Source: Eledone cirrhosa
Lineage: Eukaryota
Length of the DNA: 64,000 nt
Reading direction: 5' to 3'
Assembly: GCA_964016885.1 (NCBI GenBank)
Contig: OZ024744.1
Span: forward strand, 135,284,001 to 135,348,000
The notes below the pieces were generated by a model. It did no database searches and was not told the origin of the DNA. It was given only the letters and a program-made list of their open reading frames with translations. Shown piece by piece: positions 3,001 through 64,000 of this stretch (its first letter is position 1; the number at the start of each line of letters is the position of its first letter). The position numbers and the translations under genes are program-made.

Positions 3001-6000
3001 GGTTGAGTTAATTTGGGGTTAATTTAAGTTGGGGGTACTTAAGTTGTGTTTAAGTTAAGTGGGGTTAACTTAAGTTGGGGTTAAGTTAAGTTGGGGTTAA
3101 GTTAAGTTGGGGTTAAGTTAAGTTGGGGTTAAGTTAAGTTGGGGTTAAATTAAGTTGGGGTTAAATTAAGTTGGGGTTAAGTTAAGTTGGGGGTAAGTTA
3201 AGTTGGGGGCAAGTTAAGTTGGGGTTTAGTTAAGTTGGGGTTGAATTAAGTTGGGGTTAAGTTAAGTTGGTGTTAAGTTAAGTTGGGGTTTATTTAAGTT
3301 GGGGTTAATTAAGTTGGGGTTAAGTTAAGTTGGGGTTAAGTTAAGTTGGGGTTAATTTAAGTTGGGGTTGAGTTAAGTTGGGGTTAAGTTAAGTTGGGGT
3401 TAAGTTAAGTTGGTGTTAAGTTAAGTTGGGGCTAAGTTAAGTTGGGGCTGAGTTAAGTTGGGGCTGAGTTAAGTTGGGGTTAAGTTAAGTTGGGGTTGAG
3501 TTAAGTTGGGGTTAAGTTAAGTTGGGGTTAAGTTCAGTTGGGGTTAAGTTAAGTTGGGGTTAAGTTAAGTTGGGGTTTAGTTAAGTTGGGGTTCAGTTAA
3601 GTTGGGGTTAAGTTAAGTTTGGGTTAAGTTGGGGTTAAATTAAGTTGGGGTTAAGTTAAGGCGGGGTTAAGTTGAGTTGGGGTTAAGTTAAGTTGGGGTT
3701 AAGTTAAGTTGGGGTTGAGTTAATTTGGGGTTAACTTAAGTTGGGGGTACTTAAGTTGGGTTTAAGTTAAGTGGGGTTCAGTTAAGTTGGGGTTAAGTTA
3801 AGTTGGGGTTAAGTTAAGTTGGGGTTAAGTTAGGTTGTGGTTAAGTTAAGTTGGGGGTAAGTTAAGTTGGGGGTAAGTTAAGTTGGGGTTAATTTAAGTT
3901 GGGTCTAATTAAGTTGGGGTTAAGTTAAGTTGGGGTTAAGTTAAGTTGGGGTTGAGTTAATTTGGGGTTAACTTAAGTTGGGGGTACTTAAGTTGGGTTT
4001 AAGTTAAGTGGGGTTAAGTTAAGTTGGGGTTAAGTTCAGTTGGGGGTAAGTTAAGTTGAGGGTAAGTTAAGTTGGGGTTAATATAAGTTGGGTCAAATTA
4101 AGTTGGGGTTAAGTTAAGTTGGAGTTAAGTTAAGTTGGGGTTAAATTAAGTTGGGGTTAAGTTAAGTTGGGGTTTAGTTAAGTTGGGGTTAAGTTAAGTC
4201 GGGGTTAATTTAAGTTGGGGTTAAGTTAAGTTGCGGGTAATTTAAGTTGGAGTTAAGTTAAGTTGGGGTTAAGTTAAGTTGGGGTTAAGTTAAGTTGGGG
4301 TTAAGTTAAGTTGGGGTTAAGTTAAGTTAGGGGTAAGTTAAGTTGGGGGTAAGTTAAGTTGGGGGTAAGTTAAGTTGGGGTTAAGTTAAGTTGGGGTTAA
4401 GATAAGTTAGGGTTAAGGTAAGTTGGGGTTGAGTTAAGTTGGGGTTAAGTTAAGTTGGGGTTATGTTAAGTTGGGGTTAAGTTAAGTTGCGGTTAAGTTA
4501 AGTTGGGGTTAAGTGAAGTTGGGGTTAAGTTAACTTGGGGTTAAGTTAAGTTGGGGTTAAGTTAAGTTGGGGTTAAGTTAAGTTGGGGTTCAGTTAGATT
4601 GTGGTTAAGTTAAGTTGGGGTTAAGTTAAGTTGGGGTTAAGTTAAGTTGGGGTTAAGTCAAGGCGGGGTTAAGTTGAGTTGGGGTTAAGTTAAGTTGGGG
4701 TTAAGTTAAGTTGGGGTTGAGTTAATTTGGGGTTAACTTAAGTTGGGGGTACTTAAGTTGGGTTTAAGTTAAGTGGGGTTAAGTTAAGTTGGGGTTAAGT
4801 TAAGTTGGGGTTAAGTTAAGTTGGGGTTAAGTTAGGTTGTGGTTAAGTTAAGTTGGGGGTAAGTTAAGTTGGGGGTAAGTTAAGTTGGGGTTAATTTAAG
4901 TTGGGTCTAATTAAGTTGGGGTTAAGTTAAGTTGGGGTTAAGTTAAGTTGGGGTTGAGTTAATTTGGGGTTAACTTAAGTTGGGGGTACTTAAGTTGGGT
5001 TTAAGTTAAGTGGGGTTAAGTTAAGTTGGGGTTAAGTTAAATTGGGGGTAAGTTAAGTTGGGGGTAAGTTAAGTTGGAGTTAATTTAAGTTGGGTCAAAA
5101 TAAGTTGGGGTTAAGTTAAGTTGGGGTTAAGTTAAGTTGGGGTTAAATTAAGTTGGGGTTAAGTTAAGTTGGGGTTAAGTTAAGTTGGGGTTAAGTTCAG
5201 TTGGGAGTCAGTTAAGTTGGTGGTAAGTTAAGTTGGGGGTAAGTTAAGATGGGGTTGAGTTAAGTTGGGGTTAAGTTAAGTTGGGGGTAAGTTAAGTTGG
5301 GGGTAAGTTAAGTTGGGGTTAATTTAAGTTGGGTCAAATTAAGTTGGGGTTAAGTTAAGTTGGGGTTAAGTTAAGTTGGGGTTAAATTAAGTTGGAGTTA
5401 AGTTAAGTTGGGGTTAAATTAAGTTGGGGTTAAGTTAAGTTGGGGTTTAGTTAAGTTGGGGTTAAGTTAAGTTGGGGGTAAGTTAAGTTGGTGGTAAGTT
5501 AAGTTGGGGGTAAGTTAAGATGGGGTTAAGTTAAGTTGGGGTTAAGTTAATTTGGGGTTAAGTTAGGGTTAAGTTAAGTTGGGGTTGAGTTAAGTTGGGG
5601 TTAAGTTAAGTTAGGGTTATGTTAAGTTGGGGTTAAGGTAAGTTGGGGTTAAGATGAGTTGGGGTTCAGTTAAGTTGCGGTTAAGTTAAGTTGGGGTTAA
5701 GTTAAGTTGGGGTTAAGTTAAGTTGGGGTTAAGTTAAGTTGGCGTTAATTTAAGTTGGGGTTAAGTTAAGTTGGGGTTAAGTTAAGTTGGGGTTAAATTA
5801 AGTTGGGGTTAAGTTAAGTTGTGGTTAATTTAAGTTGGGGTTAAGATAAGTTGGGGTTAAGTTAAGTTGGGTTTGAGTTAAGTTGGGGTTGAGTTAATTT
5901 GGGGTTAACTTAAGTTGGGGGTACTTAATTTGGGTTTAAGTTAAGTGGGGTTAAGTTAAGTTGGGGTTAAGTTAAGTTGGGGTTAAGTTAAGTTGGGGTT

Positions 6001-63200: not shown

Positions 63201-63778
63201 GTTGGTTAATTAAATTGGGTTTCAGTTAAGTTGGGGTTAAGTTAAGTTGGGGTTAAGTTAAGTTGGTTAGTTAAGTTGAGTTTAAGTTAAGTTGGGGTTA
63301 AGTTAAGTTGGGGTTAATTTAAGTTGGGGTTAAGTTAAGTTGGGGTTAAGTTAAGTTGGGGTTCAGTTAAGTTGGGGTTAAGTTAAGTTGGGGTTAAGTT
63401 GGGGTTAAATTAAGTTGGGGTTAAGTTAAGTTGGGGTTAAGTTAAGTTGGGGTTAAGTTAAGTTGGGGTTAAGTTAAGTTGGTTAGTTAAGTTGAGTTTA
63501 ATTTAAGTTGGGGTTAATTTAAGTTGGGGTTAAGTTAAGTTGGGGTTAAGTTAAGTTGGGGTTAAATTAAGTTGGGGTCAAGTTAAGTTGGGGTTAAGTT
63601 AAGTTGGGGTTCAGTTAAGTTGGGGTTAAGTTAAGTTGGGGTTAAGTTGGGGTTAAATTAAGTTGGGGTTAAGTTAAGTTGGGGTTAATTTAAGTTGGGG
63701 TTAAGTTAAGTTGGGGTTAAGGTAAGTTGGGGTTAAGTTAAGTTGGGATTAAGTTAAGTTGGGGTTAAGTTAATTTGT

Positions 63779-63818
63779 GGTTAAGTTAAGTTGGGGTTAA
63801 CCCCAACTTAACTTAACC
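63779..63818. other. Head-to-head inversion junction; perfect 40-bp palindrome centred on TTAA (63797-63800)
   Basis: ggttaagttaagttggggtt|aaccccaacttaacttaacc. The first mismatch is T63778 versus C63819; imperfect inverted symmetry extends to the window end. Confidence 0.97.
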
Positions 63819-64000
63819 CCAACTTCACTCAACCCCAACTTAACTCAACCCCAACTTAACTTAACCCCAACTTCACTCAATCCCAACTTAACTCAACCCC
63901 AACTTAACTTAACCCCGACTTAACTTAACCCCAACTTAACTTAACCCCAACTTAACTTAACCCCAACTTAACTTAACCCCAACTTAACTCACACCCAACT
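63799..64000 (-). repeat. Same 16-bp array in inverted orientation (CCCCAACTTAACTTAA on +)
   Basis: From 63799 the + strand reads aaccccaacttaacttaacccc..., the reverse complement of the monomer, and continues to the window end. Confidence 0.99.

Follow-up and report, generated by a model that had tools for sequence, protein, structure and literature searches.

Does a G-rich satellite that turns abruptly into its C-rich complement mark the place where two chromosome ends were joined, or an inversion within the satellite itself? This question is raised by a 64,000-nucleotide stretch of the 3.0-Gb Eledone cirrhosa assembly (C28:135,284,001-135,348,000, hereafter the window). It belongs to a scaffold of 136.5 Mb, and the strand switch in it lies 1.15 Mb from the scaffold end. 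Our results indicate, with a probability of about 0.85, that an old inversion breakpoint within a 16-bp satellite was likely formed once at a TTAA and likely multiplied by block duplications, and that the window holds the copy at the array edge. This explanation needs no function.

Structure of the junction

The main satellite array, with its G-rich strand on top, occupied positions 1 to 63800 (TRF period 16, 4,034 copies, 89% matches), and a tandem-repeat scan of the window assigned positions 63797-64000 to its reverse complement. At their meeting point, G4 (63793-63796), TTAA (63797-63800) and C4 (63801-63804) followed each other with zero inserted bases. The first-pass annotation had described a clean inversion, a TTAA common to both arms (4-bp microhomology) and a 5'-G-rich then C-rich polarity; the base positions and the reverse-complement arm bore out all of these, and the strand switch in the assembly sequence is real. 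The shared tetranucleotide, which is the first TTAA of the unit, formed the middle of a perfect 40-bp palindrome (63779-63818, 20 bp per side, centre at 63798/63799), outside of which 32 of 200 positions were mismatched in an ungapped comparison. The dinucleotide CC was absent upstream of position 63790 in a scan of the window. Fold prediction for the single strand 63700-63900 gave one long hairpin (-75.3 kcal/mol, z -15), as is expected of any such inversion.

Unit tokenising of the left flank (plus strand) identified one shortened and two variant units at 63479-63505, a marker common to internal junction copies, and two variant units directly before the junction (63770-63790), common to copies at 131.2 and 131.8 Mb of C28. 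On the other side, the inverted arm (63799-64000, minus strand) displayed a fixed series of variant units and was homologous to the inverted cassette found inside the array (see below). The arm measured 275 bp from the centre and stopped 73 bp beyond the window, where a diverged sister satellite with a 32-bp unit followed directly.

Genomic setting of the satellite

On C28, the 16-mer domain was sampled from 126.967 to 135.348 Mb, its extent being drawn from these sampled stretches, and it included gaps, AT-rich inserts and inverted blocks; the samples revealed a chromosome-internal tandem array of at least hundreds of kilobases. A second array was present on C18 at 9.9-10.4 Mb and absent at 9.5 and 10.8 Mb, and the 16-mer was also encountered in a composite repeat of C2 (209.2-209.6 Mb). 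This composite satellite of about 500 bp (C2:209.196-209.61 Mb) alternates a spacer of about 240 bp with 16-mer runs over at least 400 kb and sits at the midpoint of a 416-Mb chromosome; it may represent a centromere or the region of an old fusion. A spacer-like repeat with a period of 196 was also recorded at C28:126.4 Mb. Not far from there, at C28:126.507 Mb, about 1.4 kb of interstitial degenerate telomere hexamers included variants resembling the G-run part of the 16-mer, and the satellite may descend from such hexamers. An isolated 16-mer tract of 230 bp was observed inside non-satellite sequence at C28:124.693 Mb.

Junction copies and inverted cassettes

The exact 22-nt junction occurred in 774 copies in the genome, against 0 for a reversed-pattern control, so that it is not a product of chance, and the initial view of a unique breakpoint was contradicted. 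In the genome search, the exact junction was absent from C1-C27, the matches starting at C28. Within the array, the junction opened a short inverted cassette, after which orientation switched back through one common return junction represented by 481 exact genome copies.

Eighty of the 774 junctions, those with exact cores and full flanks in the fetched stretches, were examined. The arm marker was present in every one of them (80/80) and the return pattern was found within 600 bp in 77, with arms of 169-447 bp (median 215); of the others, one displayed a variant return, read by eye, and two were edge copies. It had been suggested at the outset that a switch back shortly downstream, together with absence of the repeat from chromosome ends, would speak for a local inversion. 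This is what was encountered, as 78 of the 80 copies returned within 450 bp and 0 of 42 contig ends carried the 16-mer. In 59 copies the left-flank marker stood no more than 350 bp away from the junction; the other 21 lacked it in this range. Variants of cassettes and flanks formed subfamilies clustered by position (unit tokenising). A candidate second return type turned out to be the same return junction on the opposite strand with one substitution.

The copy in the window carried the long-arm variant series together with the left marker, and its arm ended within about 5 bp of the return point of long cassettes. The distance of its left flank to one copy at 131.2 Mb was 15.1, as compared with 17.3 or more for each of 150 stretches taken at random from the window, a modest margin; the overall flank-distance test was weak (best 30.0, median 38.3). 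The diagnostic unit of its arm (63989-63999) was not encountered in a scan of cassette-free forward array totalling 283.7 kb. Strand switches were patchy, with none for at least 83 kb leading to the window junction.

The arm marker common to all 80 copies suggests that the junctions descend from one ancestral event multiplied with its flanks along the array, and the left flanks common to 59 of them suggest that copies likely moved with their surroundings. Under this reading, independent switch lineages would number about four, not hundreds.

Two further features of the cassettes were recorded. On the right flank of every cassette, two to three units past the return, one unit looks as if six bases around a TTAA had been flipped where they stand; the event may have included this as a third switch of very short length. 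At C28:132.2-132.79 Mb, AT-rich repeat blocks (period of about 37) repeatedly stand in for the junction and the first half of the cassette; recurrence of the same AT-rich/cassette joins indicates that this hybrid block was amplified too.

TTAA as a join site

A search for other head-to-head joins with intact flanks yielded three kinds, located at C18:10.13-10.19 Mb (3 copies), C28:131.9645 Mb and C28:132.859 Mb, along with two deletion variants of the common junction. All three kinds were centred on the second TTAA of the unit, in mirror register. The earlier statement that the monomer offers such a join site twice is therefore upheld, with the window junction using the first TTAA and the joins at C18:10.13, C28:131.96 and C28:132.86 Mb using the second. 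No head-to-head joins were found at gaps of 0-3 bases; the search demanded exact flanks and its range excluded gaps of 4-6 bases lacking TTAA and gaps of 19-20 bases. TTAA joins are possible from 20 of 256 break pairs, and the chance of two to three independent TTAA joins, the window finding being left out, ranges from about 0.006 to 0.0005, the two C28 joins being possibly related. Mixed-register joins were not found in this search, though they pair best by base-pair count (8 of 9), and their lack is thus not predicted by a simple annealing model.

Some of these joins have kept a mirror image of their own surroundings. The C18 cassette (144 bp, 3 copies), which enters and leaves at TTAA, mirrors its own left flank: at offsets of 32-48 bp, the two have 24-32 low-copy 40-mers in common. 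Likewise, the join at 132.859 Mb mirrors about 2 kb (472 and 374 shared low-copy 40-mers at offsets of 95 and 63 bp, respectively). The same 40-mer test was ambiguous for the join at 131.96 Mb and revealed no mirror of the own flank at the window junction, where a single 40-mer was shared, perhaps because this junction is too old to have kept it. The return side behaved differently: the main return junction, with about 1 bp of microhomology, falls outside TTAA, as do two rare tail-to-tail joins at 130.42 Mb.

In fold-back inverted duplications, the mirrored copies are described as separated by a spacer, with inverted microhomology of 2-8 bp (PMC3907307). The switches on C18 and at 132.86 Mb resemble them in their 4 bp and their offsets of 32-95 bp, and short inverted microhomology, the 4-bp TTAA, was also found at the window junction. 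Yet, the cases in the accessible text of that source are large, non-recurrent and terminal with spacers of at least 766 bp, whereas the satellite events are small and internal and were amplified after a second switch had closed them; at the window junction, the mirror is no longer visible. This missing flank mirror and the absence of the diagnostic unit from the sampled forward array count against fold-back at the window event itself, for which it is a candidate mechanism.

Larger changes of orientation were observed as well. Two of them coincided, in contiguous sequence, with the second-TTAA joins at 131.9645 and 132.859 Mb, two further ones lay inside cassette remnants without entry junction (132.857 and 133.355 Mb), and the remaining ones were at or beside gaps (124.69, 131.99 and 132.79 Mb). 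Exchange between a cassette and an oppositely oriented array would yield the remnant pattern. Directly after one gap, at C28:132.794 Mb, low-complexity and seemingly poor sequence grades into inverted array and is likely a poor read end.

The array edge and its mirrored counterpart

Beyond the arm, the diverged 32-bp satellite extended over about 23.6 kb in the same orientation; its unit visibly resembles the 16-mer. Outside of it lay a non-LTR retrotransposon with endonuclease, reverse transcriptase and zinc-binding domains, which is presumably L1/Tx1-like. Its second frame is split in two, and it is 99.5% identical over 2.2 kb to a mirrored copy. A protein search with this retrotransposon gave 74 hits, almost all of them to entries without a name.

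At 124.599 Mb, in inverted orientation, the same junction recurred with a shorter arm and the 32-bp satellite. The start of this satellite block corresponds to position 5,007 of the window-side block, and 1,684 of 1,722 aligned bases agree there (97.8%). The two blocks were collinear by rare-word and alignment tests; a stricter comparison gave no long match. The second edge copy differs by substitutions and a 5-kb deletion. Resemblance continued outwards, the outer flanks of both edges sharing 96.7-99.5% identity and sequences at 135.70 and 136.00 Mb matching those at 123.75 and 123.55 Mb (96-98%), and no mirrored match was found past 136.0/123.5 Mb among 12 by 11 sampled stretches. Altogether, the inverted copy of the distal flank spans 123.5-124.69 Mb against 135.35-136.0 Mb, with 96-99.5% identity, and ends at the gap at 124.69 Mb.

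The edge at 124.6 Mb is either an unpurged second haplotype or part of a real megabase inverted duplication, and the 774 copies and the array length may accordingly sum two haplotypes. Under either reading, two diverged edge copies imply that the junction predates their split, which counts against a chimeric read.

Alternative explanations

An end-to-end fusion of two chromosomes capped by the 16-mer would account for the G-rich-then-C-rich polarity, which is that of fusion-type interstitial telomeric sites (PMC6410037), for the telomere-like appearance of the monomer and for a site only 1.15 Mb from the scaffold end. Yet, the 16-mer capped none of the 42 contig ends examined (both ends of C1-C15, C17-C20 and C28 and the starts of C16 and C29; C21-C27 were left out), where no 12-mer of the satellite was found either, whereas the canonical animal telomere hexamer was present at 10 of them. 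C28 itself ends in other satellites, so that the assembly may not reach its actual tip. At the ends of C7 and C19, satellites of 33 and 25 bp, respectively, were seen in terminal position, the opposite end of each chromosome bearing a telomere; their short units resemble the 32-bp and 16-bp satellite units. A fusion should moreover leave one site instead of 774, the inverted arm runs for only 275 bp before giving way to a related satellite, and the flank past it is mirrored across the same domain and does not come from a second chromosome end. The human 2q13-14 site shares the head-to-head polarity of a G-rich repeat (PMC6410037), but the satellite junction, unlike the human site as described there, is not made of the host's telomere repeat, is not unique and does not lie between two chromosome ends. 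The fusion reading was already largely refuted by these observations and is extremely improbable: of the two possibilities put forward by the first-pass annotation, inversion within a satellite through TTAA microhomology was retained, and the end-to-end fusion was abandoned on account of the 0 of 42 ends and the 774 copies. Mobility of a non-autonomous piggyBac-type unit, in which arm, return and some forward units would be cut and pasted into TTAA sites, is very unlikely, despite the TTAA at the join, the high copy number and the long inverted repeats formed by the cassette and the forward units that follow. TTAA followed by a C-run presumably resembles a piggyBac end. A degraded piggyBac transposase region is also mentioned for inverted centromeric elements of cichlids (PMC13652916). 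However, 59 of the 80 copies have common left flanks, so these are not unrelated target sites; insertion into the second TTAA would give mixed-register joins, of which none was found; the return junction lacks a TTAA duplication; and no exact junction occurred on C1-C27.

Hundreds of independent inversions at a TTAA hotspot would likewise agree with the recurrence of independent switches at this tetranucleotide, but they would hardly have produced the same register, the same arm marker in 80 of 80 copies and the same return in 78 of 80, and we regard this possibility as highly improbable. Equally improbable is an artefact of sequencing or assembly, be it a fold-back chimeric read or a mis-join in the repeat. 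The domain does contain gaps (124.69, 131.99 and 132.79 Mb), with one visibly poor stretch after the last, as well as an inverted edge copy of 96-99.5% identity that is possibly an unpurged haplotype, and the junction is known from the assembly sequence. Yet, in a chimeric fold-back the flank would be mirrored almost perfectly, and here this holds for 20 bp only; the arm's own variant series recurs at hundreds of places in both orientations; and a second edge copy with substitutions and a 5-kb deletion does not stem from the same read. A search of sequencing runs with 64 bases across the junction recovered 2 of 4 sampled words in 3 of the 6 runs listed, a result that carries no evidential weight; the matching runs belong to one sample and study, possibly the source of the assembly.

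Proposed origin and spread

An old inversion breakpoint, formed once and copied with its surroundings, may have arisen as follows. A strand ending in the self-complementary TTAA would pair with another TTAA and be extended in reverse, by fold-back or template switch, leaving a head-to-head junction; this step rests on the younger switches on C18 (10.13 Mb) and C28 (132.86 Mb), which mirror their flanks. Next, the arm would be closed at its far end by another switch, giving an inverted cassette of 170-450 bp. In the case of transposon tandems, a lone inverted junction is stated to be unable to spread by unequal exchange (PMC5932611). A cassette closed by a second switch would escape this limit, keeping the direction of the array and becoming copyable by unequal exchange or conversion, and the ordinary block duplications that grow the array would multiply the junction. 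The cassettes would in turn supply inverted homology for larger secondary inversions, as suggested by the switches at 132.857 and 133.355 Mb lying in cassette remnants. As to the edge form, in which the arm runs into the 32-bp satellite, we slightly favour (about 55:45) that it is the parent of the cassettes rather than derived from them.

A broader reading would be that this telomere-like satellite folds onto itself at TTAA, that one closed cassette, now in at least 774 copies, seeds larger inversions and that megabase arms, each starting at this junction, frame as mirror images a domain that is possibly centromeric. Every head-to-head switch found was on TTAA in mirror register; we consider this reading tentative and rather unlikely.

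Comparison with other satellite arrays

Human beta-satellite and chromosome 9 HSat3 arrays contain more than 200 inversion breakpoints (10.1101/2021.07.12.452052), and switch numbers that scale with array length have been read as by-products of array expansion (10.64898/2026.07.22.740206). The locus described here works like these switch arrays; of the defining features tested, it lacks two for a telomere fusion and another two for a piggyBac-type element. In common with beta-satellite and HSat3B5 on chromosome 9, it is a large satellite array in which one family contains hundreds of inversion breakpoints (774 entries and 481 returns, all exact matches). In contrast to the human arrays, whose switches are of unstated origin in the available text, the examined copies represent one junction pair carried in higher-order blocks with a patchy distribution, and new switches fall on the palindromic tetranucleotide of the monomer. 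Cichlid centromeres likewise display satellite blocks of alternating orientation and an inverted flanking pair, the latter consisting, on most chromosomes, of transposon-like elements of 15 kb with about 200 kb between them (PMC13652916). Here, unlike in the cichlids, inverted arms of 0.65-1 Mb lie about 10.7 Mb apart on one scaffold and possibly represent two haplotypes. A literature search that covered few subscription papers and no supplements found no published description of the 16-mer monomer or of such a cassette.

This analysis removes a false lead to a chromosome fusion. It also draws attention to the end of C28, where a second haplotype may have escaped purging or, alternatively, a true inverted duplication of megabase size may lie. 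The number of switches in this satellite would reflect the copying of one old event and not a high inversion rate. A short monomer with legible variants allows the history of the array to be followed: mirror copies at TTAA document the birth of switches, cassette subfamilies their spread and larger inversions ending in cassettes their likely reuse, all within one array. The test of shared history applied here could transfer to human beta-satellite and HSat3.
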